A DNA stretch of 64,000 nt from a bacterium (lineage in GTDB: Bacteria > Patescibacteriota > Minisyncoccia > UBA6257 > 02-FULL-45-10c): NCBI GenBank assembly GCA_030646555.1, contig JAUSKP010000048.1, positions 2,236-66,235 of the forward strand, read 5' to 3'. Both the position numbers and the translations under genes were made by a program. Shown one piece after another: positions 21,370-58,581 of this stretch (position 1 is the first letter of the stretch; every line of letters begins with the position of its first letter). The notes beneath the pieces are model-generated. The model searched no databases. It was not told where the DNA came from and saw nothing but the letters and a program-made list of their open reading frames with translations.

Positions 21370-21377
21370 TTTCAATA

Positions 21378-21412: not shown

Positions 21413-21466
21413 TTTGATGTTTTTAAGTTATAATCTTATTTAAGATTAGTAAAAAGAAAAAATTTA

Positions 21467-21577: not shown

Positions 21578-21606
21578 AAGATAATAATTAAAATTAGTAA
21601 AAATAT

Positions 21607-21921
21607 ATGAACTTAGATATTAAGGCAACAAATTTAGAATTAACTCCCGCTATTAAGCAGTATATTGAAACCAAAATTTCCGGGCTTTCCAAATTTTTAG
21701 AGAAATGGGAAAAATCCGGCAAAATAAACGTTAAATTTGAATTGGCCAGAACCACTAACCACCATAGCAAGGGTGAAGTTTTTTACGCTGAAATGAATCT
21801 TAATTTGGGAGAAAAAATGCTCCGCGCCGAACATTCAGCCGAGGATGCGTATAAAGCGATAGATAAAGTGAAAGACATAATGAAAGAAGAAATTATTGAG
21901 TTTAAAGAAAAGTCTGAGTAA
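21607..21921 (+). CDS. hpf: ribosome hibernation promoting factor / RaiA family (short form)
   Basis: MNLDIKATNLELTPAIKQYIETKISGLSKFL...YKAID.V; 104 aa. Confidence 0.85.
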   Translation: MNLDIKATNLELTPAIKQYIETKISGLSKFLEKWEKSGKINVKFELARTTNHHSKGEVFYAEMNLNLGEKMLRAEHSAEDAYKAIDKVKDIMKEEIIEFKEKSE

Positions 21922-21944
21922 AAATATAATACTCGTCATTGCGA

Positions 21945-22007
21945 TTGCCGCTGAAGCAATCTATTTTAATCACGAGATTGCCACGTCGCAGACTCCTCGC
22001 AATGACA
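21945..22007. repeat. composite palindromic element (B-variant + inverted B-unit) between hpf and secA
   Basis: GTCATTGCGATTGCCGCTGAAGCAATC ... GATTGCCACGTCGCAGACTCCTCGCAATGACAGA. Ends 10 nt before the secA ATG. Confidence 0.8.
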
Positions 22008-22016
22008 GAAAAATAA

Positions 22017-24365
22017 ATGTTTAACTTTTTTTCTTTTTTTGATCCGGTCAAGAAGCTTAAACCGGTTATTGAAAAAATAAATGATCTGGAAAAAGAAATA
22101 TCTTCTTTGAGCAATGAACAGCTTTTGGAAGAAAGCAAAAAACTTTTTGAAATAGAAATAGGCGAGAATGAATTGGTAAAAGGTTTTGCTTTAGTCAGAG
22201 AAACTGCCAAGAGAAATCTTGGCCAGCGTCATTTTGATGTCCAGCTGATGGGCGGCTTGGCGCTCCACGAAGGAAGAATTGCTGAAATGGCAACCGGTGA
22301 AGGAAAAACATTGGCTTCCACCGCGCCGATATATTTGAATGCGCTTTCCAAAAAAGGCGTTCACGTGGTAACCGTCAATGAATATTTAGCCAAAAGAGAT
22401 GCTGTTTGGATGGGCCAAATTTATCATGCTTTGGGGCTTTCTGTGGCTTGTTTGATCCACGAAGGCGCTTTGATGTATGACCCAAAATACATCTCTAAAA
22501 ACGCTGAAACGCTCATAGACAGGGAAAGGGACACAACCGGCAGTTTTATGGTGCAAGGCGAGTATTTAAGGCCAATTTCGCGCAAAGAAGCCTATTTAGC
22601 GGACATTACCTATGGCACAAACCATGAATTCGGCTTTGACTACCTAAGGGACAATTTAGCTTATTCTAGCGGAAACCAGGCGCAAAGAGGGCATAATTAT
22701 GTAGTAATTGATGAAATAGACAGCATTTTAATTGATGAAGCTAGGACCCCGCTTATTATTTCTGCTCCGGACGAAGAATCCAGCGATTTTTATAAGCAAT
22801 TTTCGCGCATAGTTTCCATGCTCAAAAAGGACGAGGATTATATAATTGACGAGAAAATGAAGTCGGCCGACATCACCGACGAAGGAATAAATAAAGTTGA
22901 AAAAGCTTTAAAGATAAAAAATCTTTATGATCCGGAAAATCTGAGACTGACCCGATATTTGCAGGAAACCCTGAAAGCTTACGGTTTGTTCAGGCGAGAC
23001 AAAGATTATGTGGTAAAAAATAATGAAGTAATTATCGTTGACCAGTTTACCGGCAGGCTTATGCCGGGCAGAAGATATTCCGGCGGATTGCATCAGGCCT
23101 TGGAGGCGAAAGAAAATGCGCAAGTTCAAAATGAATCCAGGACCTATGCGCAAATTACAATTCAAAATTATTTCAGGCTTTATAAAAAGATTGGGGGTAT
23201 GACCGGCACTGCCAGGACTTCAGCCGAGGAATTTGAAAAAGTATACGGACTGAAAGTTTTAAATATTCCGACCAATAAACCTTTGGCGAGAATTGATCAG
23301 CCAGACTTGATTTATAAAAACGAAGGCGCGAAATACAACGCCATTATTGAAGATGTTAAAGAAAGGCAAAAAATGGGTCAGCCGATACTCATCGGTTCAA
23401 TTTCTATAGAAAAAAATGAAATTTTGTCTAATTTGCTTAATAAATTCGGCGTGAGACACGAAATATTAAATGCTAAAAATCATGAACGTGAGGGCGCCAT
23501 TATTGCCCAGGCAGGAAGAGTCGGGGCCGTGACAGTCGCCACTAATATGGCGGGCCGTGGTGTAGATATTGTTCTTGGCGGCAATCCGGTGGATCCGGTA
23601 GAAAACCAAAAGGTAAAAGAATTGGGCGGACTCCACGTGATCGGCACGGAAAGGCACGAGGCTAGAAGAATTGACTATCAGCTTCAGGGACGAAGCGGAA
23701 GGCAGGGAGATCAAGGCTCATCCCAGTTTTTCCTTTCCTTGGAAGATGATCTTTTGCGTGTTTTTGGCGGAGAAAGAATTAAAAATTTAATGGAAAATTT
23801 TAATATCCCTGAAAATATGCCAATTGAATCGGGGATTGTGTCCAAAGCAGTTTCTCAAGCTCAAACCAAAATTGAAGGATTTAATTTTGACTCAAGAAAA
23901 AATTTGCTTGATTATGACGACATTTTAAATAAACAAAGACTCTCTGTTTATAAGAAACGCCAGGAAATGCTTGAAAAAAGTACTCATCCACAAATACTTT
24001 CTGTTTTAGATCTGTTTTGGATGAATCATTTGGAAAGTATGGAGGCCCTGCGGGAATCTGTGAGAATAAGGGCTTATGGCCAGCATGATCCGCTTGTTGA
24101 ATATCGCCGTGAAAGCCACGTTTTATATAGGCAGATGCTGGAGGGTTTTGAGAAATGGCTTGTTGAAAATAAAGAAAAAATTGAGGAAATGATTAAACAA
24201 CAAGCAGCCTCCTCTGTCATTCCCGCGAAAGCGGGAATCCAGGAAAAGAACTGGATTCCGGGTCAAGCCCGGAATGACAACAAGATGAATGGCCAAAAAG
24301 TTGGCAGAAATGATAATTGTCCATGCGGAAGCGGAAAAAAATACAAAAAGTGCCACGGAAAATAA
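22017..24365 (+). CDS. secA: preprotein translocase ATPase SecA with C-terminal zinc-binding tail and an in-frame repeat-encoded insertion
   Basis: DEAD-like motor motifs (MATGEGKT, VIDEIDSILIDEARTPLIIS), C-terminal CPCGSGKKYKKCHGK. Residues VIPAKAGIQEKNWIPGQARND are encoded by an A-family repeat pair. Confidence 0.9.
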   Translation: MFNFFSFFDPVKKLKPVIEKINDLEKEISSLSNEQLLEESKKLFEIEIGENELVKGFALVRETAKRNLGQRHFDVQLMGGLALHEGRIAEMATGEGKTLASTAPIYLNALSKKGVHVVTVNEYLAKRDAVWMGQIYHALGLSVACLIHEGALMYDPKYISKNAETLIDRERDTTGSFMVQGEYLRPISRKEAYLADITYGTNHEFGFDYLRDNLAYSSGNQAQRGHNYVVIDEIDSILIDEARTPLIISAPDEESSDFYKQFSRIVSMLKKDEDYIIDEKMKSADITDEGINKVEKALKIKNLYDPENLRLTRYLQETLKAYGLFRRDKDYVVKNNEVIIVDQFTGRLMPGRRYSGGLHQALEAKENAQVQNESRTYAQITIQNYFRLYKKIGGMTGTARTSAEEFEKVYGLKVLNIPTNKPLARIDQPDLIYKNEGAKYNAIIEDVKERQKMGQPILIGSISIEKNEILSNLLNKFGVRHEILNAKNHEREGAIIAQAGRVGAVTVATNMAGRGVDIVLGGNPVDPVENQKVKELGGLHVIGTERHEARRIDYQLQGRSGRQGDQGSSQFFLSLEDDLLRVFGGERIKNLMENFNIPENMPIESGIVSKAVSQAQTKIEGFNFDSRKNLLDYDDILNKQRLSVYKKRQEMLEKSTHPQILSVLDLFWMNHLESMEALRESVRIRAYGQHDPLVEYRRESHVLYRQMLEGFEKWLVENKEKIEEMIKQQAASSVIPAKAGIQEKNWIPGQARNDNKMNGQKVGRNDNCPCGSGKKYKKCHGK
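24215..24279. repeat. A-family repeat pair inserted in-frame in the secA 3' end
   Basis: TGTCATTCCCGCGAAAGCGGGAATCCAG...GGATTCCGGGTCAAGCCCGGAATGACA translates in the secA frame as SVIPAKAGIQEKNWIPGQARND. Confidence 0.8.
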
Positions 24366-24391
24366 TTTTAGGAAGTCCGACTTCCTAAATT

Positions 24392-24422
24392 AAAAACCTC
24401 CAAAATTTTGGAGGTTTTTTTG
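24392..24422. terminator. bidirectional rho-independent terminator between secA and the pilin-like gene
   Basis: Palindrome CCTCCAAAATTTTGGAGG followed by TTTTTTT and preceded by AAAAA. An additional hairpin AGGAAGTCCGACTTCCT lies at 24370-24386. Confidence 0.75.
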
Positions 24423-24431
24423 CTTCTAAAC

Positions 24432-26768
24432 TTACCTTATTTTTAATTTCAGTCCAGTAATTTCGGCTCTTAATTCTTCAATCTGTTTCTGCTGGTCTTG
24501 AATAGCGCCGGTCAAAATTGCTTCCATACCGGTTGGATTGTACCAATAGTATCCTTTATCATCTTGCGAGATCATTTCCGGAATAACATTTTTAACCTCT
24601 TGAGCAATAAATCCATACTTCAATCCCGGATTTGTGCCAAACTGGCTGTCGTGAAGCGCGTTCCATCTGTAAGAAACAGGGCGAAGAGCCATTATTTTAT
24701 TAAGAGACTCTCCTTTTAATTCACTATAAACATTTTTCCATCGCTGGTCAGAAGTGCTAGTCCAGGCAGTTCCCGTAGACAATCCGGCTGTTCCGACAAC
24801 ACTAAGCGCGTACGTCCCTGGCGCCGTCGTCCCAATGCCGACTTTGCCGGATGAATTTACCGTCAAAACATCACCCACTGAAGCATCGCTAACAGAAAAA
24901 TAATTCTTTCCTCCATTATAGTTTCCATAAGCGGAAGTTGGAGGCGTAAAATTAGCTGTCCATCTGGCAATCCCTTTGCTTACACGAACCTCATCTATTG
25001 CCCCGGTAAATCTTGACCCAGGGGCAGAGTCTGCGCCAAGGAAAAAGCCGGCGGTGGCGGCGTCATTGGTCGGAACCCCTGTTACGTCTTTAGTGTCTTG
25101 AAGTGCACCATCTATGTATAATTTTAGCGTGTTGCTTTGCCTAATAAAGGCGACGTGGTGCCAAGCATTATCACTGGTGTCCACCGTAGAGGTTACATCG
25201 TAGGCCGTCGCAGAGCTGTTCCAAATATACGCCCATAAATATTTCCCGCCGTAAATTTTCCAACTGGAACCGGCGCCGGTATTGTCTCCATATGCAATTA
25301 TAGGGTTAGTCCATTGACTATCCGTAGTAATCGCGCTTTTGTACCATAGATCTATAGTGAATTCGCCGCTTCCCATTTCATAGTCAACGTTATCCGTTGG
25401 TCCGGCAACATAGTCGCCTGTACCATCAAACAAAATAGAACCTGTCCCAAATTTTTGAAATGCTGTGTCAATTTGAGCGTCTGCTTGGCGCGTCATAGTT
25501 TTACTGGATTCATCGGTTATAGTAGCGGAACCGTCTGTTCCATTGGCATGGATAAGCGTTTTACTATAACTGTCATCCACACCTACTTCCGTAAATAATC
25601 CAGTATCGCGTCCTCTTACGTCAAGTGTTGATTCTGGTGTCGTCGTCCCTATGCCGACTTTGCCGGCAGTTGAAATAAATATCGTTGATGTTCCGACTGC
25701 GGTGTTTGCACTGCTAAAGTATGCAAGCTGGCCGGTAGAACCCGTCAAACTCGCGCTTCCGCCCGCGACACAAGTTCCATTTATGGCAAAACAGCCTCTT
25801 GCAACATCTATTCCGCCAGTTGAAGAAAAAGTAGATGTGGCAGTTGAAAAGTTTATGCCATTAGTATTTCCCACAGAAAACAAACTGCCGGGAGTCGTGG
25901 AGGAAATGCCGACGTTGCCGCCATTAGTGATGATTAAGTTAGTAGCCGTGGAAGAACCAATCACAAAAGCTGGACCGGTAATTCCGTTGGGATTGACAGA
26001 CAAAAGTCCCCATGGAGAAGAAGAGGCGATGCCAGTCTTGCCCTCTATTATCATTCCTGAAGTTGGCGCCGCGATAATGCCGTAAGTTGCTCCGACAGAA
26101 GCGCTGCCAGTTATACCCAGTTTGGACAGGGGCGCCGTATTTCCGATGCCGACACTACCACTTATATAAGCATTATTCCAAGGCAAAGCAGTAGTGCCGA
26201 TATCATAAAAAGTTGCGGCGCCGGGAATAAGATTAGAATCAAAAGTAGCGGCGGACACGCGGGCAATTGCCGAGCTTAAAGTGCGGGAAAAAGCGGATGC
26301 CGGATTAGTGGTGTTGTAGCTCAAAGTCAGATCAATTTGCACGGAATCATGCCCTGAATATCCGGAAACTTTTAAAAAGTTAACTGCGTCGGCAACAACA
26401 CTGCTATTGGTAAGCGGTTGGGGAGTGCCGTTAGCTTCTTCTTTATAAACTATGCCGTTTAAAATATAAAATTCCGTAGGATTTTTGGTATCGTCTTTAA
26501 ATCTCAAAACTAAAGTGGAGGTGGAAGTGCCGGCGTCTATATCAATGACAGAAGAATCCCTAATAGATCTCTGCATATTTTGCAGGGTGAAATTAAGCTG
26601 TTCATTGACTTCTATGACGGCAGTTTGCCTGCTTTTAATTTTTGTAGTGTCAATCAGAACGCCGGATAAAACTGCTCCTGTGGCGCCTAAGATGGCGGTA
26701 TAAATTAAAACTTCCATGAGGGTAAAACCACCTATTTTTTTATTTGTAGTCATAGATATATTATACAA
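24432..26768 (-). CDS. type IV pilin-like protein with tail-fibre-like repeats, LamG-like domain and C-terminal S74 intramolecular-chaperone (auto-cleaving) domain
   Basis: N-terminal class-III signal KKIGG|FTLMEVLI with Glu at +5. Gly/Ser/Thr-rich repeats of the GKVGIGTTTPESTLDVRG type. LamG-like segment (WHHVAFIRQSNTLKLYIDG...AIDEVRVSKGIARW). C-terminal ...STSDQRWKNVYSEL...LRPVSYRWN...GFIAQEVKNVIPEM...IQDQQKQIEELRAEI matches the phage tail-spike/endosialidase chaperone domain. Confidence 0.8.
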   Translation of the reverse strand: MYNISMTTNKKIGGFTLMEVLIYTAILGATGAVLSGVLIDTTKIKSRQTAVIEVNEQLNFTLQNMQRSIRDSSVIDIDAGTSTSTLVLRFKDDTKNPTEFYILNGIVYKEEANGTPQPLTNSSVVADAVNFLKVSGYSGHDSVQIDLTLSYNTTNPASAFSRTLSSAIARVSAATFDSNLIPGAATFYDIGTTALPWNNAYISGSVGIGNTAPLSKLGITGSASVGATYGIIAAPTSGMIIEGKTGIASSSPWGLLSVNPNGITGPAFVIGSSTATNLIITNGGNVGISSTTPGSLFSVGNTNGINFSTATSTFSSTGGIDVARGCFAINGTCVAGGSASLTGSTGQLAYFSSANTAVGTSTIFISTAGKVGIGTTTPESTLDVRGRDTGLFTEVGVDDSYSKTLIHANGTDGSATITDESSKTMTRQADAQIDTAFQKFGTGSILFDGTGDYVAGPTDNVDYEMGSGEFTIDLWYKSAITTDSQWTNPIIAYGDNTGAGSSWKIYGGKYLWAYIWNSSATAYDVTSTVDTSDNAWHHVAFIRQSNTLKLYIDGALQDTKDVTGVPTNDAATAGFFLGADSAPGSRFTGAIDEVRVSKGIARWTANFTPPTSAYGNYNGGKNYFSVSDASVGDVLTVNSSGKVGIGTTAPGTYALSVVGTAGLSTGTAWTSTSDQRWKNVYSELKGESLNKIMALRPVSYRWNALHDSQFGTNPGLKYGFIAQEVKNVIPEMISQDDKGYYWYNPTGMEAILTGAIQDQQKQIEELRAEITGLKLKIR

Positions 26769-26782
26769 TAATATTAGGTTAA

Positions 26783-26836
26783 GGAATATAGAATTTAGAA
26801 TATTGAATATAGAATAGGAATAGAGAATGTTGAATT
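26783..26836. repeat. AT-rich GAATATAGAAT-type low-complexity repeat (inverted copy at 27236-27275; similar motif at 34088-34135)
   Basis: AGAATATTGAATATAGAATA here versus the reverse complement of 27245-27270 (AGAATATTGAATACAGAATA) gives 19/20 identity. The two copies flank the four-helix-bundle gene. Confidence 0.5.
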
Positions 26837-27225
26837 TAAGATTCGTATCTTTTCTGGCGAGTAGCTTGCAATAAGCCTGTAAGAAGTTTATTGGCTATAA
26901 TTGATTGCTCAGCGCATTCGTCAAAATATTCTTTTGATAAATAACCAACATCCTTAGCAATTAAAAGCTGGTTTTGAAGCTCAGTCATTGAACCCTTAGC
27001 GTTGCTGTAGAAATAATGTTTTTCTTTTGAGGACCTTCTGCTAAAACCCTCGGCAATATTAGAAGTAAAAGAAACTACAGCTCTTCTCATTTGATCTGTG
27101 AGTCCATATTTTTCTTCTGAAGGAAAGTTTTTAGTTTCCTTATAAATCATCAAAACTAGTTTGTGTCCTTCCTGCCAAACTAATAAATCGGTAAATCTTT
27201 GAATTTTCTTAATTTCCTTATTCAT
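26836..27225 (-). CDS. four-helix-bundle protein (23S rRNA IVS-protein family, TIGR02436-like)
   Basis: 129 aa; LLVWQ....L...IY..T..FP..E.YGLTDQMRRA..S...NIAEGF.R.S..E...F...A.GS..E; family assignment from memory of the conserved pattern. Confidence 0.6.
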   Translation of the reverse strand: MNKEIKKIQRFTDLLVWQEGHKLVLMIYKETKNFPSEEKYGLTDQMRRAVVSFTSNIAEGFSRRSSKEKHYFYSNAKGSMTELQNQLLIAKDVGYLSKEYFDECAEQSIIANKLLTGLLQATRQKRYES

Positions 27226-27235
27226 AGTTTTAGTT

Positions 27236-27275
27236 TTTTATTCTATATTCTATATTCTGTATTCAATATTCTCAT
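27236..27275. repeat. inverted partner of the 26783-26836 AT-rich repeat
   Basis: TTCTATATTCTATATTCTGTATTCAATATTCTC; see the 26783-26836 feature. Confidence 0.5.
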
Positions 27276-27970
27276 TATACCCCAGAGGGGTCCGTGAAAA
27301 AGATAACCAAAGTTTTAAAAAGAATTTTAATATCTAGCCATAAAGACTGATTTTCCAAATAATATTTGTCGTATTCTAATTCCTTAAGAAAGGGGAGTCC
27401 TGAAGCGCCATTCACTTGAGATAGGCCGGTCAAGCCCGTTTTTGCCGCAAGAAGCTCGCGATATTCTCTGGGGTAAGCAAATAGTTCTTCCGGTTCGTGC
27501 GGCCTTGGGCCGACCAAAGAAAGCTCTCCTTTTAAAACATTTATTAATTGCGGAAGCTCATCTAATCTGAATTTTCTTAAAAACCTGCCAACTTTTGTAA
27601 TGCGGGGATCATTTTTTATCTTAAAGAATGGCCCGTCCTTGCGCTCATTTAAGCTTAATAAATCTTTCTTTTGTTTTTCAGCGCCTAAAACCATGGATCT
27701 GAATTTATACACTTTGATTATTTTTCCTTCGCTTATTCTGTCTAGTTTTATTAAAATCGGACTATTTGTCATTTTTGCGAAAAATCCCCCTTCATCCCCC
27801 TTTATAAAGGGGGAAAGAGGGGGATTAGGATTTGTTAATATTTGGGACATCGGAAGTCCAAGAAAAGAATCCATTTTTATGGCCAGCGCGATGAACGGAA
27901 AGAACGGAAGCAAAATAATTAGACCTATTAATGAGCCAAGTATGTCAATTAGTCTTTTTATGATAAACAT
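27275..27970 (-). CDS. initiating sugar transferase (bacterial sugar transferase / WbaP-WcaJ C-terminal domain family) with in-frame palindrome insertion
   Basis: N-terminal TM, KVYKFRSM, LSLVGPRPHEPEE..., LTGLSQVNG signature. Extra segment FLGLPMSQILTNPNPPLSPFIKGDEGG between the conserved AIK.DS and FF...KFRSM positions. Confidence 0.8.
   Translation of the reverse strand: MFIIKRLIDILGSLIGLIILLPFFPFIALAIKMDSFLGLPMSQILTNPNPPLSPFIKGDEGGFFAKMTNSPILIKLDRISEGKIIKVYKFRSMVLGAEKQKKDLLSLNERKDGPFFKIKNDPRITKVGRFLRKFRLDELPQLINVLKGELSLVGPRPHEPEELFAYPREYRELLAAKTGLTGLSQVNGASGLPFLKELEYDKYYLENQSLWLDIKILFKTLVIFFTDPSGV
27783..27826. repeat. 44-nt nested perfect palindrome inside the sugar transferase coding region
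   Basis: AATCCCCC-ttcat-CCCCCTTTATAAAGGGGG-aaaga-GGGGGATT. The reverse complement translates in-frame to NPPLSPFIKGDEGG. Confidence 0.85.
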
Positions 27971-27992
27971 TTTTTAATTATATACTATTATT

Positions 27993-28192
27993 GTTAATAA
28001 TTTTAAATTACAAATTTTAAATTTTTAATCAATACCCAATTACTAAATTTAAATGAATAAACAAAAACAAGGAAGGGTTTACGGGTCTATGTTATAATTT
28101 TGAAATCAAAAAAGATGAAATAAATGTTAGAACCTGTTTTTAAATTTAGATATTACTGTTTTAAAATTGATTTAAAATTTGTAATTTTAAAT
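27993..28192. repeat. inverted AT-rich repeats (TTTAAATTACAAATTTTAAA / TTTAAAATTTGTAATTTTAAA) bracketing the divergent promoter region between the sugar transferase and GT4 genes
   Basis: Arms at 27993-28013 and 28172-28192. An extended -10 TGTTATAAT at 28091-28099 lies between them. Confidence 0.45.
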
Positions 28193-28206
28193 TTAATATT
28201 TATTAT

Positions 28207-29685
28207 ATGCGCGTTGCAATCATTCACGATTATCTAAATCAATATGGCGGAGCGGAAAGAGTACTTGAAGCTTTTTGCGAGCTTTTTCCTGATGCGCCAA
28301 TCTATACTCTTTTTTACGATGAGGAAAAAACACTCGGGAGATTTAAAGACAAGGATATTAGAACAAGTTTTTTGGATATGAACTGGATTGCCACGTCTCA
28401 CCTGTCCGAAGCTTTACGCGAAGGAGGGTCGCAGGCTTTCCCGATTGCAAAGCAATCGAGGATCCTCGATAAAGTCGGGACTCGCAATGACAGAAAGGGG
28501 GAACTGGATTCCCGCTTTCGCGGGAATGACAGAGAGATTGCTTCGGCGCAGACTTCTCGCAATGACGGAATGGAAGCGGGAATAGTGGAAAAGAAAGGCG
28601 GAATCTTTCATAAATTTGTAATAAATAATCACAGGCTTTTTATCCCGCTAATGCCTATCGCCGCTTCGCTTATGAAAGTTGACGATGACTACGATGTGGT
28701 TTTATCTTCTAGCGCCGGATTCGGAAAGGGGATGAGAGTCGGGAAAAACACTATCCATATTTCTTATTGCCATACGCCCCTGCGTTACGCCTGGGAACAT
28801 TACAAATATTTTAATTGGCAAACTTATTTAAAAATTTTATCTGCCCCGGCTTTTTGGTATTTAAGAATATGGGATAAGTGGGTTGGACGAAAACCGCAAA
28901 AACTAATCGCCAATTCCAAATATATCTCCGAAAAAATAAAAAAATATTATAAAAGAGAGGCGGAAGTAATTTATCCGCCGGTAGATACCGAAAAATTCTG
29001 CGTCAAACCGAAAGTCAAAAAAGGGGATTATTTTTTGGCTGTCGGCAGGCTTATTCACTACAAAAAATTTGACCTGATCATTCGGGCATTCAATAAATTG
29101 AATTTGCCGCTTTTAATAATCGGCAATGGTCCGGAATTGGAAAATTTAAAACAATTAGCTAAATCCCCCCGCCTTCGCCCCGACTTCGCGAATGTTTCGC
29201 CGGGCAAACAAGGCTCCCTCCTTCGCCAAGGCTATGGCGGGCAAGCTGGCGGGCAAAGTAAAATAGAGTTTTTAACTTCCATAACCGATGAGCAATTAAT
29301 TCTTTTATATAATGGCGCGCAAGCTTTTATTTTTCCTCAGGTAGAAGATTTTGGACTGGTGGCCGCTGAAGCGCAGGCTTGCGGAACGCCGGTAATAGCC
29401 CTAAACCAAGGCGGTGGAAGAGAAATAGTTGAAGACGGCAAAACCGGCATTTTGTTTAACAATCAAAATGTAGATGATCTGATTATGGCGGTAAAAAGAT
29501 TCACCCTGTTAAATAATTTCGCTTTTAGAGAAATTCCCGCAAGAGCGGGATTTAACAGGGTAAAAATAAAGCAATTTGACCAAAAATTGATCCGTGAATC
29601 TGCGCTGCGATTTTCTAAAAATAAATTTAAAAAAGCGATATTGAAGGCGGTTTATGAAGCAAGGAATGCGTCATCCCGTACTTGA
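28207..29685 (+). CDS. GT4-family glycosyltransferase carrying repeat-derived in-frame insertions
   Basis: N-terminal MRVAIIHDYLNQYGGAERV, C-terminal GT-B motifs (E..G....EA.ACG.PVIA). Two internal segments and the C-terminal NASSRT-stop are encoded by A/B/C-family repeat units. Confidence 0.8.
   Translation: MRVAIIHDYLNQYGGAERVLEAFCELFPDAPIYTLFYDEEKTLGRFKDKDIRTSFLDMNWIATSHLSEALREGGSQAFPIAKQSRILDKVGTRNDRKGELDSRFRGNDREIASAQTSRNDGMEAGIVEKKGGIFHKFVINNHRLFIPLMPIAASLMKVDDDYDVVLSSSAGFGKGMRVGKNTIHISYCHTPLRYAWEHYKYFNWQTYLKILSAPAFWYLRIWDKWVGRKPQKLIANSKYISEKIKKYYKREAEVIYPPVDTEKFCVKPKVKKGDYFLAVGRLIHYKKFDLIIRAFNKLNLPLLIIGNGPELENLKQLAKSPRLRPDFANVSPGKQGSLLRQGYGGQAGGQSKIEFLTSITDEQLILLYNGAQAFIFPQVEDFGLVAAEAQACGTPVIALNQGGGREIVEDGKTGILFNNQNVDDLIMAVKRFTLLNNFAFREIPARAGFNRVKIKQFDQKLIRESALRFSKNKFKKAILKAVYEARNASSRT
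28385..28585. repeat. tandem B-long, A and B repeat units inserted in-frame in the GT4 gene (about 67 aa)
   Basis: GATTGCCACG...CTCGCAATGACA (109 nt), then GGATTCCCGCTTTCGCGGGAATGACA, then GATTGCTTCGGCGCAGACTTCTCGCAATGACGG. Encodes ...LDSRFRGNDREIASAQTSRNDG.... Confidence 0.85.
29163..29258. repeat. C-family GC-rich hairpin repeat inserted in-frame in GT4 (encodes SPRLRPDFANVSPGKQGSLLRQGYGGQAGGQS)
   Basis: CCGCCTTCGCC...CTCCTTCGCCAAGGCTATGGCGGGCAAGCTGGCGGGCAAAG resembles the 32694-32749 and 33205-33235 units. Interrupts the conserved GT-B region between LKQLAK and KIEFL. Confidence 0.7.
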
Positions 29686-29758
29686 TACGGGATCCAGGTC
29701 GAGGACTGGATTCCAAATCAAGTTTGGAATGACAGAGGGAGAAATGCTCGCAATGACA
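29669..29758. repeat. composite A/A/B-remnant element overlapping the GT4 stop codon
   Basis: GTCATCCCGTACTTGATACGGGATCC (the GT4 TGA stop lies in the hairpin loop) ... GGATTCCAAATCAAGTTTGGAATGACA ... GCTCGCAATGACAGA. Confidence 0.8.
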
Positions 29759-29764
29759 GAAAAT

Positions 29765-29799
29765 TTGACAAATAGGTGAAATTAGTGTATTTTATACAT
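29765..29799 (+). promoter_or_regulatory. sigma70-type promoter with operator-like palindrome, sibling of 21154-21186
   Basis: TTGACAAATAGGTGAAATTAGTGTATTTTATACAT; about 30/38 identity to the 21153 module, including the GTGTAT.TTATACA core. Confidence 0.6.
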
Positions 29800-29827
29800 A
29801 GTTCATTCAACCTTTAGGAGGGGAAAA

Positions 29828-30082
29828 TTGATAGAAACAATAAAAGAAGAAGAGGTAAAGATAAATACCAAGAGCGGGATTGTCGGAAAAACAATAAGCG
29901 AAATTGAGAAAGAATTCCAGGTTTGCATAGTGGAATTAAAAAATCTCAGCGATCGCGCATTCGTGTTTTCGTGGGAGGAAAAACCTGAAAAATCCACAAC
30001 TATCAAACCGGAAGACGAGATAGTTGTTTCCGGAGAACCGTTGAATATCAAGCAGTTTTCCAAGGCCGCCTCTCTGAATTAA
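29828..30082 (+). CDS. stand-alone TrkA-C (RCK C-terminal)-like domain protein, TTG start
   Basis: 84 aa; G.IVGKTISEIE....V.IV.....R.......P...I..GD.I.V.G; RBS AGGAGGGG upstream; followed by a strong terminator. Confidence 0.5.
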   Translation: MIETIKEEEVKINTKSGIVGKTISEIEKEFQVCIVELKNLSDRAFVFSWEEKPEKSTTIKPEDEIVVSGEPLNIKQFSKAASLN

Positions 30083-30088
30083 GAGAAG

Positions 30089-30128
30089 CACCCCCTCACT
30101 CATATAGAGTGAGGGGGTTTTATTTTTA
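30089..30128 (+). terminator. rho-independent terminator
   Basis: CACCCCCTCACTC-atatag-AGTGAGGGGGT followed by TTTATTTTTAT. Confidence 0.8.
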
Positions 30129-30155
30129 TATCATTTTTCTTCCTTTCTGTTTGTT

Positions 30156-30298
30156 TGTCATTCCTGCGAAAGCAGGAATCCATGTTTTTAGTTCATAATC
30201 TCTGGATTCCGGGTCAAGCCCGGAATGACAGATATGAGTAGATTGCTTCCTCCTTCGCATGGCTTCGGACGGACAAGTCGGCGGCACTCGCAATGACG
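30156..30298. repeat. composite palindromic element (A fwd, A rev, B-long rev with internal C hairpin)
   Basis: TGTCATTCCTGCGAAAGCAGGAATCC ... GGATTCCGGGTCAAGCCCGGAATGACA ... GATTGCTTCCTCCTTCGCATGGCTTCGGACGGACAAGTCGGCGGCACTCGCAATGACGG. Confidence 0.8.
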
Positions 30299-30362
30299 GA
30301 AAGACAACAAAAATGACATAGAGAAACTTCATTTTTTGTTCATTTTAAGTTAAAATCTATAA

Positions 30363-32192
30363 ATGTTAGAAAATATCAGAAATTTCTGTATAATCGCGCA
30401 TATTGACCACGGCAAATCCACATTAGCCGATAGACTTTTGGAATTCACCGGCACGATTGAAAAGAGAAAAATGAAAGCCCAATATCTGGACCAAATGGAT
30501 CTTGAAAGAGAACGCGGTATTACCATTAAAATGACACCGGTCCGGATGAAATATAAGTATAATGATACTGAGTACACCCTTAACTTAATTGATACCCCGG
30601 GGCACAGCGATTTTTCCTATGAAGTTTCCCGCGCTTTAGCGGCGGTAGACGGCGCTATTTTACTAGTAGACGCTTCCCAGGGAATACAAGCCCAAACATT
30701 GGCCAACTATAATCATGCTAAAAAAGCAGGACTAAAAATAATCGGCGCCATAAACAAAATAGATCTGAATCCGTACGGGGTGGAAGAAATAGCAAAAAGC
30801 ATCAGTGAATTAACCGGGGAAAATCCGGATGATATCCTAAAAGTTTCGGGTAAAACCGGCCAGGGCGTGGAAGAGCTTTTAAAGGTAGTGATAGAAAAAA
30901 TTCCTGCTCCTAAAAAAGCTTTGATCTCGGAAAAGATCTTTGATAAGGATATTTTTCAGGCTTTGATATTCGATTCTTTTTATCATGAACATAAAGGCAT
31001 CGTTGCCAATGTCAGAGTCTTTAACGGATCCTTAAAAAGAGAAGGCGAGGCATATTTGGTTGCCGCTCAGAATAAATTCAAAGTAAAAGAGCTCGGACAT
31101 TTTTCTCCAGAATTAAAAAATGATGAGATCATAGAAGCCGGACAGATTGGCTATATTGCCACAGGACTTAAAGATCCGGAGATCTTGAAAATAGGCGACA
31201 CTATAATCAGCAGTGATCAGAGGCTAACAGAAGAAGATGTGAGATCACTGGCGCTTTCCGGCTATAAGGACCCTCAGCCGGTTGTTTTCGTGTCTTTCTA
31301 TCCGGACGAAGCTGATGATTACGAAAATTTAAAAACCGCTTTGGGAAAATTGAAACTAAATGATTCCGCGCTTAAATTTGAAGCGGACTTTAATGAATTT
31401 CTGGGAAGGGGATTCAAGGGCGGATTTTTAGGAAGACTTCACTTTGAAATAACCGCCGAAAGACTTGAACGTGAATTTAATTTACGAACCGTAAACAGCT
31501 TTCCATCTGTTTCTTATAAAGTTAAAACCAGGAATGAGAAATGGATAACTGTGGACACGCCCAAAGATTTTCCAGAAGATCACCTAGAAGTATTGGAGCC
31601 TTTGGCAAACATTGAAATAATAACCCCATCAAATTATTTAGGCGCGGTTTTGGGGTTGCAGCAAAGTTTTAAATTAAGAGATATAAACACCCGCTCTCTA
31701 GGAAATTCTGTAATTTTAGACGGGATTTTGCCAGTTGCCGAACTTATCAGGGATTTTGATGACCAATTAAAATCTGTTTCGGCTGGATACGCTTCATTAA
31801 GTTATGAGGTTTCCGGTTATAAAAAAGCTCAAGTGGTAAAACTGGAAATTTTAGTTGCCGAACATAACATTGGCGGACTCACGCGCATTGTTTATAAAGA
31901 TGATATGGATAGGGAAGCCAGAAAAACCGTGGAAAGACTAAAAGAACTTTTGCCCGCTCAACAATTTTCTCAAGCTATACAAGCCACTATCGGAAGCAAA
32001 ATCATTGCCAGAGAAACTATTCCGGCTATGAAAAAAGAGCTTGGTAATTTCGGAAAAAATGGCGGAGACAGGACCAGGAAAATGAAGCTCTGGAAAAAAC
32101 AGCAAAGGGGCAAGGAACGGCTTAAAGAAAGGGGCATTAAGAGTAAAATAGATATTCCGGCTAGGATATTTAAAGAATTACTGAAGAAATAG
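30363..32192 (+). CDS. lepA: elongation factor 4 (LepA)
   Basis: NFCIIAHIDHGKSTLADRLL; G-domain motifs DTPGH, NKID; LepA-specific C-terminal domain; 609 aa. Confidence 0.9.
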   Translation: MLENIRNFCIIAHIDHGKSTLADRLLEFTGTIEKRKMKAQYLDQMDLERERGITIKMTPVRMKYKYNDTEYTLNLIDTPGHSDFSYEVSRALAAVDGAILLVDASQGIQAQTLANYNHAKKAGLKIIGAINKIDLNPYGVEEIAKSISELTGENPDDILKVSGKTGQGVEELLKVVIEKIPAPKKALISEKIFDKDIFQALIFDSFYHEHKGIVANVRVFNGSLKREGEAYLVAAQNKFKVKELGHFSPELKNDEIIEAGQIGYIATGLKDPEILKIGDTIISSDQRLTEEDVRSLALSGYKDPQPVVFVSFYPDEADDYENLKTALGKLKLNDSALKFEADFNEFLGRGFKGGFLGRLHFEITAERLEREFNLRTVNSFPSVSYKVKTRNEKWITVDTPKDFPEDHLEVLEPLANIEIITPSNYLGAVLGLQQSFKLRDINTRSLGNSVILDGILPVAELIRDFDDQLKSVSAGYASLSYEVSGYKKAQVVKLEILVAEHNIGGLTRIVYKDDMDREARKTVERLKELLPAQQFSQAIQATIGSKIIARETIPAMKKELGNFGKNGGDRTRKMKLWKKQQRGKERLKERGIKSKIDIPARIFKELLKK

Positions 32193-32201
32193 TCTTTTTT
32201 C

Positions 32202-32352
32202 TGTCATTCCGCACTTGTCGCCGAAGTCATCGCTATGCGAGATCTGGCGAAGCCAGACAATCTATCTATCTGTCATTGCGAGGGCTTTGGCCCGCGGCAA
32301 TCTATCTTATTATGGATTGGATTGCCACGTCGCGGACTCCTCGCAATGACAG
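32202..32352. repeat. composite palindromic element (A-long, B, inverted B) immediately 3' of lepA
   Basis: TGTCATTCCGCACTTGTCGCCGAAGTCATCGCTATGCGAGATCTGGCGAAGCCAGACAATC, TGTCATTGCGAGGGCTTTGGCCCGCGGCAATC, GATTGCCACGTCGCGGACTCCTCGCAATGACAGA. Confidence 0.8.
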
Positions 32353-32670: not shown

Positions 32671-32693
32671 TAAATGTTAAAATAATTAGTGAT

Positions 32694-32749
32694 CCATCCT
32701 TCGCTGTTTCAGCGGGCTTGCCCGCCGAAGCCAGCTATGGCTGGCAAAG
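32694..32749. repeat. C-family GC-rich hairpin repeat abutting tRNA-Gly
   Basis: CCATCCTTCGCTGTTTCAGCGGGCTTGCCCGCCGAAGCCAGCTATGGCTGGCAAAGGCGGG, with nested stems CCCGCC/GGCGGG and GCCAGC/GCTGGC. Confidence 0.65.
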
Positions 32750-32820
32750 GCGGGATTAGTACAATGGTAGTACGCGACCTTCCCAAGGTTGAGACGCGAG
32801 TTAGATTCTCGTATCCCGCT
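32750..32820 (+). tRNA. tRNA-Gly (anticodon CCC), atypical T-loop
   Basis: Acceptor GCGGGAT/ATCCCGC is a perfect 7 bp; D-arm GTAC-AATGGTA-GTAC; anticodon arm CGACC-TTCCCAA-GGTTG. The T-loop is TTAGATT with A where the conserved C56 should be, so it could be degenerate. Confidence 0.5.
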
Positions 32821-32942
32821 CGCTTTGAGAATAATTCTTCTTTGGTAATGGGACGCTGGTTAAGACAGGGATCCGACCGCGCCCCGCACTCAGCTTCGCT
32901 GTAGTGCTGGGGCTCCCGTTACCCGCTCATAGTTAGATAAAA

Positions 32943-33164: not shown

Positions 33165-33257
33165 TGTCATTCCCGCGAAAGCGGGAATCCAGAAAACCTA
33201 GATTCCGCATCCCTCCGCCGCAAGGCTTCGGACGGGCAAGCAAGTGCGGAATGACAG
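33165..33257. repeat. composite palindromic element (A fwd + A-long rev with internal C hairpin) upstream of prfB
   Basis: TGTCATTCCCGCGAAAGCGGGAATCC ... GATTCCGCATCCCTCCGCCGCAAGGCTTCGGACGGGCAAGCAAGTGCGGAATGACAGA. Confidence 0.8.
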
Positions 33258-44455: not shown

Positions 44456-44478
44456 CGTCCCGATGTTTATCGGGACGC
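44456..44478. terminator. hairpin ACGTCCCGAT-gttt-ATCGGGACG between convergent genes (weak T tract)
   Basis: 9-bp perfect stem; overlaps the stop of the minus-strand L,D-transpeptidase gene. Confidence 0.45.
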
Positions 44479-45207
44479 TTTGCCAAGAATTTTTACCAGA
44501 ACAGGCGGACCATTTATCCGGCCCATTTTCTTTTTGTCGGTCGCCACTATCCACATATAAAGCGTTTTAGCGTCCATTAGCGCGGGCTTTTTCGGATAAC
44601 CGTAATATTTTTTCTGCATTTCCTCATCATATAAACCGATACAGCCGTGCGAAGCGGGTTTTCCGTCCAAGTCCCTGCCATGGATAAAAAAGTTAGTATC
44701 TTTTTTTTCTGACCGAGAAAGCTGCAATGCCCAATCCATAGGATAGGGCCGTGTGGAATTATTTATAAAATAACGGGAAGAACGCTTATTTTTTTCAAAA
44801 TTATAAATATAAAATAATCCAGTTGGCGTAGCAAAGCCTTCTTTTCCGGAGGATATCGGAAAACTAAATTTAAGTCTGCCGTACTGATAAGCTCCTAAAA
44901 ACTGCTTAGAAAGATCAACAACTATCACCTTGGGAACTAGCCTATATTTTTTTAAAGCCATAGGCAGGGGATTATAATGAAAATTCTCCGAATTGAGAGG
45001 AATTTTGACTTTGTATCCCTTGTAAATGTGAACTCTATCTATGCGATTAAATCTTAATATTTCAATCCACGATTCAGGAAAAACTTTTTCTAAATCATTT
45101 TGGCGTTTAAGCGTATACATCCTAAAGTCGGGTTCTTGAGAGAAGACCATTCCCGAACCTGCAAATAAGAAAAAAATGCCTAGCAGCGCCCTATATAACG
45201 CGAACAT
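44467..45207 (-). CDS. L,D-transpeptidase (YkuD domain)
   Basis: Catalytic motif ASHGCIGL preceded by H (FFIHGRD); N-terminal signal/TM. Confidence 0.8.
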   Translation of the reverse strand: MFALYRALLGIFFLFAGSGMVFSQEPDFRMYTLKRQNDLEKVFPESWIEILRFNRIDRVHIYKGYKVKIPLNSENFHYNPLPMALKKYRLVPKVIVVDLSKQFLGAYQYGRLKFSFPISSGKEGFATPTGLFYIYNFEKNKRSSRYFINNSTRPYPMDWALQLSRSEKKDTNFFIHGRDLDGKPASHGCIGLYDEEMQKKYYGYPKKPALMDAKTLYMWIVATDKKKMGRINGPPVLVKILGKASR

Positions 45208-45217: not shown

Positions 45218-45251
45218 TTTGTCCGCCATAGCTTTATGCGAAGGCGGATTT
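45218..45251. repeat. C-family hairpin; antisense near-copy of the RNase P RNA P3 region
   Basis: TTTGTCCGCCATAGCTTTATGCGAAGGCGGATTT versus the reverse complement of 57958-57986 (TTGTCCGCCATAGCTTTAGCGAAGGCGGATC). Confidence 0.7.
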
Positions 45252-50611: not shown

Positions 50612-51853
50612 ATGCAAAAAGTTATTTATTTTTTTATTTTAATATTCAGCGGCATGGGCCTATTTTTATTTTTTACTTCCAATAACAATTTGAGCCTTTC
50701 CGATATTCCAAAAACAGCCAGCCAAGAAGATGTAGTAGCCGAGAAAAAAATACCCGAACAGGCAAAGCCCGTAGATCCCAAAGCCGACATTGAACCGCAA
50801 AAAAAACTGGAAAATCCTCCGTCTGTAATTAAGGCTATCTATTCAAGCGCCTGGTCAGCCAGCAGCGCTAAAAAAATTGATTATTTTATCAACCTTATTA
50901 AAACCACAGAAGTAAACGCTATTGTTGTTGATATTAAAGATTACACCGGAAATTTGAGCTATAAAAATGATATTGAGTTGGTCAATAAATATGGCGCCAT
51001 AGAAGTGAAAATCACAAAACCAAACGCCTTAATTAAAAAACTGCACGATGAAGGCATATATGTGATAGCCAGAATGGCGGTTTTCCAAGACCCGGCGCTT
51101 GTTAAAGCCAGACCGGACTTAGCATTGCAAAGCATATCCAAAAATAAACCCTGGACGGATTACAAAGGGATCCCTTGGGTGGATACATCTTCAAAAGAAG
51201 TTTGGGACTACAACATTACTATAGCCAAAGACGCGTTAAGCAGGGGATTTGATGAAATAAATTTTGACTACATTAGATTCGCTTCAGACGGAAATATGGC
51301 AGACATCAGATATCCTTTTTATAACTCAAAACTGCAGACAAAGAGACAGGTGATGAACAGCTTTTTTAAATACTTGAGAGAAAATCTGCCTGACGCAAAA
51401 ATGTCCGCTGATTTATTTGGCTACACCACATTGCTTCAGGATGATTTGGGTATCGGACAACATATAGATGATGCTATGCCGTATTTTGATTACATCGCGC
51501 CGATGGTTTACCCATCGCATTACAATAAAGGATTTAACGGCCATACTAATCCGGCGGAATTTCCTTATGACGTAGTTTATACATCTATGTTAAAAGCCGA
51601 GCAACGACTAAATGCTTTTAATGAGTCAACCACGACAATAAAAATAGTTGAATCCAAATTCAGGCCTTGGCTTCAGGATTTTGATTTGGGAGCGGATTAT
51701 GATGCCGCTAAAGTCCGGGCCCAGATTCAGGCGACTTACGACGCGGCCTCCACAACTGAAGCAGGCTCGCCCGCCGAAGCTTCGGCGAAGGCGGGATGGA
51801 TGCTTTGGGCGCCTACAAATATTTATACAAAGGACGCTTTATTAAGCGAGTAA
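50612..51853 (+). CDS. hypothetical secreted protein, possible glycoside-hydrolase-like TIM-barrel (DUF4015-like) fold
   Basis: N-terminal TM/signal; NAIVVDIKDYTGNL...IYVIARMAVFQD...GFDEINFDYIRF pattern. Contains the C-family repeat-encoded segment TEAGSPAEASAKAGW. Confidence 0.5.
   Translation: MQKVIYFFILIFSGMGLFLFFTSNNNLSLSDIPKTASQEDVVAEKKIPEQAKPVDPKADIEPQKKLENPPSVIKAIYSSAWSASSAKKIDYFINLIKTTEVNAIVVDIKDYTGNLSYKNDIELVNKYGAIEVKITKPNALIKKLHDEGIYVIARMAVFQDPALVKARPDLALQSISKNKPWTDYKGIPWVDTSSKEVWDYNITIAKDALSRGFDEINFDYIRFASDGNMADIRYPFYNSKLQTKRQVMNSFFKYLRENLPDAKMSADLFGYTTLLQDDLGIGQHIDDAMPYFDYIAPMVYPSHYNKGFNGHTNPAEFPYDVVYTSMLKAEQRLNAFNESTTTIKIVESKFRPWLQDFDLGADYDAAKVRAQIQATYDAASTTEAGSPAEASAKAGWMLWAPTNIYTKDALLSE
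51764..51799. repeat. C-family palindromic unit inside the coding sequence of ORF 50612-51853
   Basis: GGCTCGCCCGCCGAAGCTTCGGCGAAGGCGGGATGG, containing the perfect palindrome CGCCGAAGCTTCGGCG. Confidence 0.6.
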
Positions 51854-54325: not shown

Positions 54326-54381
54326 ATCATTGCGAGGCAACTGACTTGTCCGCCATAGCTTCGGCGAAGGTGGAAGCAATC
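54324..54381. repeat. B-family unit with internal C-family hairpin
   Basis: CCATCATTGCGAGGCAACTGACTTGTCCGCCATAGCTTCGGCGAAGGTGGAAGCAATC. Confidence 0.75.
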
Positions 54382-57320: not shown

Positions 57321-57812
57321 TTATTTGGTAAAAAATTCAAAAAATCGTTCTCGAAAAAAAATAAATAATGTCGCTCCTGACCCAATAATAAAACTTGAAA
57401 CAACCGAGGCGGTATAACCATATTCTCTCGCACACGCCTCAATAAAATACAGTGGCTTGATAAAATCCCTTCCCCTCCAATCAGTTGTTAGAGTGGTATT
57501 TCTATTATTAGCGTCGAGTGGTATGAGTAATTCTTTTTTTATGGCTTTATCAATCAAATCATCTATCTTTTTCCACTGTATTCTAACCAAATTTGTTCCA
57601 TATTCTGTTGCCTGTGTCGGATATTTACCACTTATACATTGATACCATCTGCGTATTGTTGATTTCCAATCTTCATAAAAGTTTTTTTCATGTGCAAGAT
57701 GTATTCTAAAATATGAACGACTTATATTGTCGTTAAACCAATTCGGGGCATTACCATCTTTCGGCCTGTTCGGACGTGTAAAATACCACATTAACCACCA
57801 AAGTTTTATCAT
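57321..57812 (-). CDS. hypothetical protein, AT-rich and Trp-rich
   Basis: 163-aa ORF between rnhA and rnpB; no motif recognised. Confidence 0.4.
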   Translation of the reverse strand: MIKLWWLMWYFTRPNRPKDGNAPNWFNDNISRSYFRIHLAHEKNFYEDWKSTIRRWYQCISGKYPTQATEYGTNLVRIQWKKIDDLIDKAIKKELLIPLDANNRNTTLTTDWRGRDFIKPLYFIEACAREYGYTASVVSSFIIGSGATLFIFFRERFFEFFTK

Positions 57813-57895: not shown

Positions 57896-57924
57896 ATTGA
57901 AATAAACTCCATAATATGTTATAG
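57896..57924 (+). promoter_or_regulatory. sigma70-type promoter for RNase P RNA
   Basis: TTGAAA-17 nt-TATAGT, positioned about 16 nt upstream of the P1 5' strand. Confidence 0.55.
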
Positions 57925-57940
57925 TATTTTTGTTGGCAGT

Positions 57941-58578
57941 TTAGACAGCAGCCGTGATCCGCCTTCGCTAAAGCTATGGCGGACAACGGAGGAAAGTCCG
58001 GACACTCCTCCGATGCAAATCGGAGAGCAGGGTAGCGGGTAACCCCCGTCCAGGACTCTATTTCGATAATAATTCCTAAACGCGTTGCCAGGATAAGTTG
58101 AAAATTTCAAGGCTTGCCGACAAGCCAGTGGATGATTCCACGGCTTGGAGGCATAACACAGAAATTTTCAAGTTAGACCGCAAACCTCCGGGATACAGCC
58201 AATTTTATTTATAACTGCGTTGGTCGTCGGAAATGTAGAATCATCTACTAATTTCCTCCTCCCGCCTGGTTCTAAATAAAATTGGCTAGTATCGCGTTGG
58301 AAACTATTATCGAAATAGAGTCCGATAGTAATATAGAGGTGCGAGCAGAAACGTCTTGTTTTGAAAAGAACAAGGAGACCTGATCTCAAGCTAATCGGTC
58401 TAGTTCAGATATAGAGATAAAAAATCTGAAATGAAACGGCTAAATCCTTACCCGAGTGCAAGGCCGTACTGCGCAAGCAGTGTGCCGCAAGAGCCATTAA
58501 GCAATTAGTGGCCCAGATAAATTGCTGTTATCTATCCGTTAAAAGACAGAACAGAATCCGGCTTATTAGCTGCCAACA
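57941..58578 (+). ncRNA. rnpB: RNase P RNA (bacterial type A) with large internal expansion
   Basis: P4 strands GGAGGAAAGTCCGGAC and ACAGAATCCGGCTTA. P1 pairing GTTGGCAGTT/AGCTGCCAAC. P18-like AGCCATTAAGCAATTAGTGGCCCAGATAAATTGCTG. A ~280-nt AT-rich insertion is closed by the 19-bp helix GGACTCTATTTCGATAATA (58042-58060) / TATTATCGAAATAGAGTCC (58304-58322). Confidence 0.75.
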
Positions 58579-58581
58579 ACA

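Follow-up and report, generated by a model that had tools for sequence, protein, structure and literature searches.

A dispersed hairpin repeat probably settled in helix P3 of the RNase P RNA gene of a Patescibacteria lineage

The 64,000-nt stretch analysed here (the window; 37.6% GC) belongs to a contig of the Patescibacteria, or candidate phyla radiation (CPR), and carries on its forward strand rnpB, the gene for a type A RNase P RNA. The gene order mraY-pgk-DHH-rnhA-rnpB-murC is common to the window and several relatives. The subject of this report is helix P3 of the predicted ribozyme, whose distal part matches a short hairpin repeated elsewhere in the window. The rnpB features are as follows.

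57933..58579, plus strand: rnpB, type A RNase P RNA gene, predicted from a partial RF00010 match and from relatives
57897..57925, plus strand: promoter-like site of rnpB, TTGAAA, a 17-nt spacer and TG-TATAGT (10/12 matches)
57935 onwards and ending at 58574: 5' strand (GGCAG) and 3' strand of P1
57952..57989, plus strand: helix P3, 38 nt, CCGT GA TCCGCC TTC GC TAAA GC TAT GGCGGA CA ACGG
57956..57987, plus strand: distal P3, probably repeat-derived (family copy), assigned by its score with a covariance model from which it was held out
57989 onwards and 58550-58564: 5' strand (GAGGAAAGTCCGG) and 3' strand (ACAGAATCCGGCTTA) of P4
58581-58604: predicted intrinsic terminator of rnpB

The identity of the gene was established with relatives, which comprised 48 loci from a metagenome scan with a conserved rnpB 28-mer and five from a MurC genome scan (loci are given as L plus a number). 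The conserved P4 strands GAGGAAAGUCCGG ... ACAGAAnCCGGCUUA are both intact in the window (57989-58001 and 58550-58564), and the closing strands of P1 and P2 are mutually complementary, as the type A fold requires. The 3' 244 nt are 93% identical to rnpB of L009 and L012, and the −10 region of the promoter-like site is kept in L009, L019 and L012. No RF00010 match was obtained from Rfam at the gathering threshold (100 bits), and a search in E-value mode gave a partial match of 48.1 bits (E 2e-13). L001 (126.6 bits) and L005 (106.2 bits), where rnpB sits in the corresponding syntenic place, pass the threshold, and L009 (90.5 bits) falls below it. The low score of the window gene reflects a 274-nt insertion together with an enlarged P3, and not absence of the gene. 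Because of this insertion the E-value-mode alignment misplaced P1-P3, and relatives were used for helix assignment instead. In all syntenic relatives rnhA directly abuts rnpB; the window has between them an orphan 163-aa open reading frame (ORF; 57321-57812, minus strand), which is absent there and has no match in Pfam, PHROG or NCBIfam.

The RF00010 alignment of L009 places the homologous hairpin at P3, with a 14-nt insertion in its loop, and the hairpin at 57952-57989 is assigned to P3 on this ground. It folds with a minimum free energy (MFE) of −18.6 kcal/mol (z −5.0). Its distal part consists of two stems (57958-57963 with 57978-57983, and 57967-57968 with 57973-57974) separated by a 3x3 internal loop, TTC/TAT, and closed by a TAAA loop.

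The initial annotation had described this hairpin as near-identical to a dispersed repeat, and this description is borne out by several measurements. The 16-mer AAGCTATGGCGGACAA, read on the rnpB strand, occurs exactly at three places in the window, namely rnpB P3, 45219 and 54346; scanned as TTGTCCGCCATAGCTT, the exact sites are 45219-45234 (+), 54346-54361 (+) and 57971-57986 (−). Allowing up to three mismatches in TTGTCCGCCATAGCTT gave six sites against 0.38 expected, a number reached in 0 of 100 shuffles. Positions 57956-57986 (GATCCGCCTTCGCTAAAGCTATGGCGGACAA) agree with the reverse complement of 45218-45250 in 30 out of 31 columns of their alignment, which contains a single 1-nt indel. 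This 31-mer had been placed at 57958-57986, and its second partner, which occupies 54346-54376, at 54341-54370; both coordinates are corrected here. The motif CCGCCATAGC may resemble the 5' end of 5S rRNA.

Since an nhmmer profile of seven copies was too insensitive for distant copies, a covariance model was used instead; a MAFFT alignment of six copies misplaced two with a bulged A, and the model, R1, was therefore built from four clean copies, none of them in rnpB (45218, 54345, 29214 and 51766). R1 scored the held-out rnpB P3 hairpin at 42.9 bits (E 9e-7). The P3 copy is thus a member of a dispersed hairpin family, beyond chance, and the P3 sequence of the window equals the family consensus. 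In the window R1 gave 11 matches, which include two sites (29177 and 28397) beyond those listed previously; the related sites that had been listed (29214, 30246, 32692/32717, the weak 33209, and 51766) were either recovered by R1 or used to build it. The copies outside rnpB are the following.

45218..45250, minus strand: stand-alone copy in the 5' untranslated region (UTR) of a YkuD L,D-transpeptidase gene, 2-3 nt upstream of the Shine-Dalgarno sequence
54345..54376, minus strand: copy in the mraY-pgk spacer, enclosed by the loop of an older hairpin, CATTGCGAGGCA...GAAGCAATC (54327-54380)
30246..30277, plus strand: copy upstream of lepA, nested in an ATTGC...GCAAT hairpin (R1 24.4 bits)
29169..29258, plus strand: insertion of 90 nt (30 codons, in frame) within a GT4 glycosyltransferase gene, made up of copies 29177-29208 and 29214-29245 and a GGCGGGCAAAG tail
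51766..51797, minus strand: copy within a DUF4015 gene, in the 3' part (residues ~385-396, PAEASAKAGW)
32692..32756, both orientations: composite of two overlapping copies in opposite orientations (R1 27.2 and 32.7 bits)
33209..33240, plus strand: weak copy nested in a GATTCCGCA...TGCGGAATGAC hairpin (R1 18.7 bits, E 0.3)
28397..28429, minus strand: weak copy in an ATTGC...GCAAT hairpin, within a 231-nt GT4 insertion (28377-28607)

The repeat is about 32 nt long, with the consensus YCCNCC-TTC-GC-loop-GC-TWY-GGNGGR-CAAG. For 24 copies, taken from inside and outside the window, pairing holds in 95% of cells, and at the outermost pair U-A (13 copies) covaries with C-G (10 copies); neither the observed pairing nor the covariation score was reached in any of 500 shuffles. 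The family hairpin is therefore structurally conserved. Most copies in the window are variants other than the one in P3 (GCTTCGG, GGCGGGCAAG), and the flanks indicate that at least five of the ~11 copies, P3 included, sit in the loop of another hairpin. The rnpB copy had been called antisense to the others, a term that concerns the strands of the window alone; five copies (29177, 29214, 30246, 32692 and 33209) share its orientation. With respect to local transcription, the 45218 copy runs in the same sense as its gene (YkuD, minus strand), and the copies at 54345 and 51766 are antisense. In the composite, the plus-strand copy extends to 32748 and lies directly 5' of tRNA-Gly (start at 32750).

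The initial annotation had left two directions open, namely that the repeat colonised P3 or that fragments of rnpB seeded the repeat family. Alignment of rnpB from relatives bears on both, since a P3 of the same sequence in genomes lacking the family would have spoken against a link; what was found instead is a shorter and different P3. Relatives with a short P3 are close, with MurC 81-85% and rnpB cores 84-93% identical. In L012, L047, L001 and L005 the P3 hairpins are 17-22 nt long and unrelated to the repeat. Four types of P3 can be told apart.

L001, L011, L017 and L046: CCCTGATGTAAAAGTCGGGG
L005: CCTTGAAACGAAAGTTTCAGGG
L012 and L047: GCTCATTGAATAAGTGAG
Window, L009 and L019: 38-nt repeat type, with the 3' arm AAGCTATGGCGGACAA identical in all three

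A neighbour-joining tree of five proteins gave (L005,(L019,((L011,L001),(L012,(window,L009))))), on which only the window and its sister L009 carry the repeat-type P3, apart from L019. The rnpB of L019 is a mosaic, nearly the same as L009 over the first 117 nt and at the 3' end and L001-like in the middle (L019:5311-5716 compared with L009:7042-7423 and L001:7196-7599); the P15-P17 region (CCCAGCCCCAGTTTTTTTTAAAAACTGGGGCTGGG) is identical to L001, and the protein tree places L019 outside both L009 and L001. Such a pattern points to a recombinant gene or a chimeric assembly. Because of the mosaic, and because L009 and L019 come from the same metagenome, we rejected L019 as an independent witness of an older insertion. 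By eye, P3 of L014 and L018 looked family-like; with R1 scores of 16.6 and 14.4 bits (E ~1-3) we make no claim for them. Given the tree topology, one gain compares with at least three losses, and the simplest history would be a gain in the ancestor of the window organism and L009. Since syntenic relatives have short, unrelated P3 helices and the repeat type is found only in the window, L009 and the mosaic L019, the comparison supports colonisation of P3 by the repeat rather than seeding of the family by rnpB.

Presence and absence can also be compared at other sites. Judged by their orthologues, which are empty, the copies at four sites outside P3 (GT4, YkuD, the mraY-pgk spacer and lepA) are demonstrably derived insertions. 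In the mraY-pgk spacer of L012 the outer hairpin GTCATTGCGAGGCAGCCGAAGCAATC stands without a nested copy; in the window its loop contains 33 nt of family hairpin, in L001 the loop is of another kind, and in L009, L019 and L005 the element is missing. Upstream of lepA, L054 likewise has the outer hairpin without a family copy, and the window has the nested copy. The YkuD orthologue in L101 (87% amino acid identity) lacks the hairpin in its 5' UTR and reads AAAAATT|AGGAGGCTGGCTTATG, where the window has a 38-nt insertion that ends in the hairpin, directly before AGGGAGGAAATATG. The ATG at 45207 (YkuD gene 44467-45207, minus strand) comes after the hairpin and the Shine-Dalgarno sequence; the NCBI annotation of the protein (P0121, 217 aa) starts 29 codons downstream of it, and the 246-aa orthologue P0122 supports the longer form.

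The GT4 glycosyltransferase of the window has 492 aa, compared with ~360 aa in its homologues, and contains three in-frame insertions.

28377-28607: 231 nt, 77 codons
29169-29258: 90 nt, 30 codons
29503-29562: 60 nt, 20 codons

All three lengths are multiples of 3, there are no stop codons, and the insertions are absent from eight homologues (65-90% identical, a range given for the 90-nt insertion) and from L054 DNA. The 90-nt insertion holds two family copies, and the 231-nt insertion one weak nested copy. The first insertion site is a hot spot at which P0002 and P0003 carry different, smaller insertions. Inspection of the flanks of the 90-nt insertion revealed no evident target-site duplication. 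Dispersed hairpin copies, presence and absence at orthologous sites (P3 among them) and in-frame insertions in genes are the marks of a selfish palindrome, and all of them are found here.

Beyond the window, the family is found in viral sequence. In IMG/VR, four GC-rich contigs (51-62% GC) contain the family hairpin at 38-48 bits.

L070:4121-4152, L087:1491-1524, L096:8742-8773 and L074:8807-8838: IMG/VR copies

A 16-mer scan of IMG/VR had given 44 matches, ~40 of which are chance matches or belong to one phage coding sequence, the remaining four being the true family hairpins. They form TCCGCC-NNC-GC-loop-GC-TAT-GGCGGA-CAAG, and the L070 copy differs from the window P3 at one position in 29 nt. 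Two of the IMG/VR copies lie inside ORFs that by eye resemble a prohead protease and a lipase (GHSLGG motif). The occurrence of the same hairpin in GC-rich viral contigs means that the family consensus is conserved across very different genomes.

In the 53 CPR loci, all R1 matches with E < 0.3 outside the window fall inside rnpB, which makes up ~5% of that DNA. They are P3 of L009 and L019 and inverted doublets at the P19 position, one in L033/L039/L049 (27.9 and 21.8 bits; L033:6994-7055) and one in L027 (21.7 and 18.7 bits; L027:4236-4344); L033 and L027 are distant CPR lineages. The concentration in rnpB is suggestive only. It might stem from preferential retention in a conserved RNA gene, from insertion favouring hairpin-rich targets, or from rnpB segments being exchanged. 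No family copy was found in the 21 kb of L054 that are syntenic with the part of the window richest in repeats.

Based on these comparisons, we propose that a dispersed hairpin repeat probably settled in the P3 loop of rnpB in an ancestor shared by the window organism and its sister L009, and that the ribozyme tolerated this. P3 would have been short at first, and its apical loop would have received a GC-rich hairpin of ~32 nt, either by insertion or by copying through recombination or template switching. A hairpin placed in the loop of a hairpin would merely lengthen the helix, and as P3 is peripheral and variable in length, such a change may have been tolerable; the copy would now be transcribed as the distal 30 nt of P3. 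We infer both the molecular mechanism of insertion and the neutrality or benefit of the copy for RNase P. Several observations weigh against this proposal. The window and L009 differ in P3 at five places, every one of them in the 5' arm, an asymmetry that the proposal does not account for; this arm has drifted in L009 and L019 (TTCACCATCGC), giving A.C mismatches. R1 finds no second copy in the L009 and L019 loci (10-12 kb; L009 11.7 kb), which is weak evidence against dispersal in the sister genome and says little, given that copies are also missing from stretches of 12-28 kb in the window. P3 evolves so fast that its ancestral state cannot be reconstructed, and gene conversion and simple insertion leave the same picture. 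Finally, no transposase was found among the ~11 window ORFs scanned against Pfam, no target-site duplication at the inspected GT4 insertion and no other mobility signature, so that the word insertion rests here solely on presence/absence comparisons.

Seeding in the opposite direction, in which P3, or P3 with the 5' strand of P4, was copied out of rnpB and gave rise to at least the AAGCTATGGCGGACAA subfamily (45218 and 54345), would fit the relative ages, as the P3 copy predates the split of the window organism from L009 and the copies at 54345 and 45218, absent from the orthologous sites of L009, L012 and L101, may be younger. The 45218 copy is also the closest relative of the window's own P3, and the match runs on into GGAGGAAA, to ~39 of 43 positions in total. 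Of the seven GGAGGAAA sites in the window, only that at 45216, before YkuD, has an ATG at Shine-Dalgarno spacing. However, L101 already has AGGAGG at this spot without the hairpin, which argues that the Shine-Dalgarno sequence was not imported from P4. We accordingly rejected the 45218 copy with GGAGGAAA as a retro-copy of P3-P4; on this comparison GGAGGAAA at 45216 reads as a pre-existing Shine-Dalgarno sequence that merely resembles the 5' strand of P4. Nor can the near-identity of 45218 and P3 serve as a sign of recent copying, because the L070 copy from a viral contig is as near to P3 (28/29); it reflects a strongly conserved family consensus and not recent descent from P3. Moreover, most window copies are variants outside the AAGCTATGGCGGACAA subfamily, and the family is present in lineages with unrelated P3. 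Seeding from rnpB, as the initial annotation had also considered, is therefore highly unlikely, given the same consensus in distant CPR lineages and viral contigs and the older Shine-Dalgarno sequence.

A different account would make the hairpin a functional RNA module, such as a binding site for a protein or RNase or a stability element, that was selected independently into RNase P RNA, tRNA leaders, 5' UTRs and spacers. Conservation across phyla of the sequence itself, beyond its structure, maintenance of the hairpin with covariation, the copies directly 5' of tRNA-Gly and of a Shine-Dalgarno sequence, and the confinement to rnpB of the outside matches in the CPR loci would all suit such a module. 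It is less easily reconciled with copies in both orientations relative to transcription (54345 and 51766 being antisense), with in-frame copies inside protein genes, where an RNA function is unlikely, with filled and empty sites between close relatives whose gene order is unchanged, and with the decay of the 5' arm to A.C mismatches in L009 and L019; we regard it as improbable. Resemblance by chance or convergence, by which stable GC-rich hairpins of an AT-rich genome come to look alike without common descent, could appeal to the generic nature of CCGCC/GGCGG stems and UUCG or GNRA-type loops, and the weak matches in P3 of L014 and L018 are indeed not significant. An exact 16-mer at three places, 30/31 identity that extends to unpaired positions, different P3 sequences in relatives under the same compositional pressure, and the E-value of the held-out copy effectively refute it, leaving it scarcely credible.

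Colonisation of P3 by a dispersed repeat has parallels in known systems. The initial annotation had considered either direction unusual, which was an overstatement, because repeats inside structural RNA genes are known: Rickettsia felis has 728 Rickettsia palindromic elements (RPEs), 85 of them in ORFs and three in RNA-coding genes (PMC1166351). Like the window family, RPEs are palindromes dispersed in intergenic DNA, in frame in protein genes and in RNA genes (PMC1166351). They also differ in presence and absence between relatives, and no associated transposase is known in either case. The window element, ~32 nt long, spans phyla and frequently occupies the loop of another hairpin, so that the likeness is one of analogy only; RPEs are ~100-150 bp long, are restricted to Rickettsia and are not GC-rich islands. 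The GC clusters of yeast mitochondria, for example GC42, are short GC-rich palindromes with constrained stems in an AT-rich genome (PMC4478555), and like the window family they vary in presence between strains at given sites and merge into composites (PMC4478555). In contrast to the window family, they are organellar and eukaryotic and unrelated in sequence, and GC42 is reported to duplicate a target dinucleotide, AG, whereas no duplication is evident at the GT4 insertion.

The closest case in rnpB itself is that of the STRR repeats, which Vioque reportedly described in 1997 inside the gene for RNase P RNA of heterocyst-forming cyanobacteria. As here, a short genome-wide repeat lies in a variable peripheral helix of rnpB and the gene is kept; there, however, it consists of tandem heptamers rather than a single hairpin, and it is said to lie in P12, not in P3. 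Repetitive extragenic palindromic elements and their paired forms (REP/REPIN) resemble the family as imperfect palindromes of 20-40 nt, often in inverted pairs, as in the rnpB doublets of L033 and L027. Unlike them, REPs are extragenic, species-specific and linked to REP-associated tyrosine transposases (RAYTs), and the window copies lie inside the rnpB, GT4 and DUF4015 genes with a consensus that crosses phyla. No RAYT/Y1 transposase was found among the ~11 window ORFs scanned against Pfam, and with copies inside genes and no RAYT in this set, identity with REP was rejected. Identity with miniature inverted-repeat transposable elements was rejected as well, no target duplication being evident at the inspected GT4 insertion. 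Our literature searches turned up no earlier account of the repeat family, nor of repeats within the rnpB of CPR bacteria.

The window rnpB carries a second departure from its relatives. Positions 58051-58324, between P8 and P9, form a 274-nt insertion in which a perfect 19-bp base stem (58053-58071 paired to 58305-58323) carries two long hairpin arms (MFE −122 kcal/mol, z −11.5), which is absent from rnpB of L009, L012, L047, L001 and L005. Its base stem has no further copy in the window, the loci or IMG/VR, and the insertion has no Rfam match; it may be more unusual than the P3 finding. In L012:4394-4882 and L013:3730-4218, rnpB has insertions of ~100 nt in the hairpin after P5. Among 48 rnpB loci, P4 and P15 lie between 123 and 449 nt apart, with lineage-specific expansions.

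Other hairpin repeat families occupy the window at 19573-32349, often as inverted pairs ~60 nt apart in a REPIN-like arrangement; inverted pairs and other members are found at 21500/21566, 21936/21996, 32273/32340, 28481 and 28556. They include GTCATTGCGAG...GCAATC (with 11 exact copies of the CTCGCAATGA motif), GGATTCCCGC...GCGGGAATGAC and GGATTCCGGG...CCCGGAATGAC. The loops of these hairpins are hypervariable between relatives, and it is there that the nested copies of the present family sit. Between tRNA-Gly and tRNA-Thr (32843-32925) lies a hairpin, GGTAATGGGA...TCCCGTTACC, that is conserved with L054 and has no Rfam match; its window version has an extra GC-rich hairpin insert of 36 nt (~32877-32912).

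Selfish palindromes in tolerant parts of essential genes are a known phenomenon, of which the repeat in P3 is a new bacterial example. Large helix extensions and missing helices have been reported for CPR rnpB genes that fall below Rfam thresholds (Lui et al. 2021, PMC8172020). Like those genes, the window rnpB is missed at the gathering threshold, and L009 reaches 90.5 against 100 bits. That study shows an extended P15 (its S5 Fig), and its passages relevant here do not tie extensions to dispersed repeats (PMC8172020). Capture of a dispersed hairpin would offer one concrete route to helix extensions in diverged CPR RNase P RNAs and would help to explain why standard covariance models miss CPR rnpB genes. 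RPE-like behaviour, with in-frame entry into protein genes and entry into a ribozyme gene, is also documented here for a streamlined CPR genome, in which little selfish DNA would be expected; the short hairpin concerned has nearly the same sequence in CPR genomes as in GC-rich viral contigs. A more far-reaching possibility is that ~32-nt hairpins mobile across phyla prefer the loops of other hairpins, their movement being targeted by structure and possibly mediated by single-stranded DNA or RNA, with P3 and the P19 position of rnpB as places where they recurrently land or persist across Patescibacteria, and rnpB as a lasting reservoir of renewed copies; we consider this extension doubtful. If the family did prove to be a true structure-targeting mobile element, it would provide a tractable model for minimal elements that move without encoding anything.

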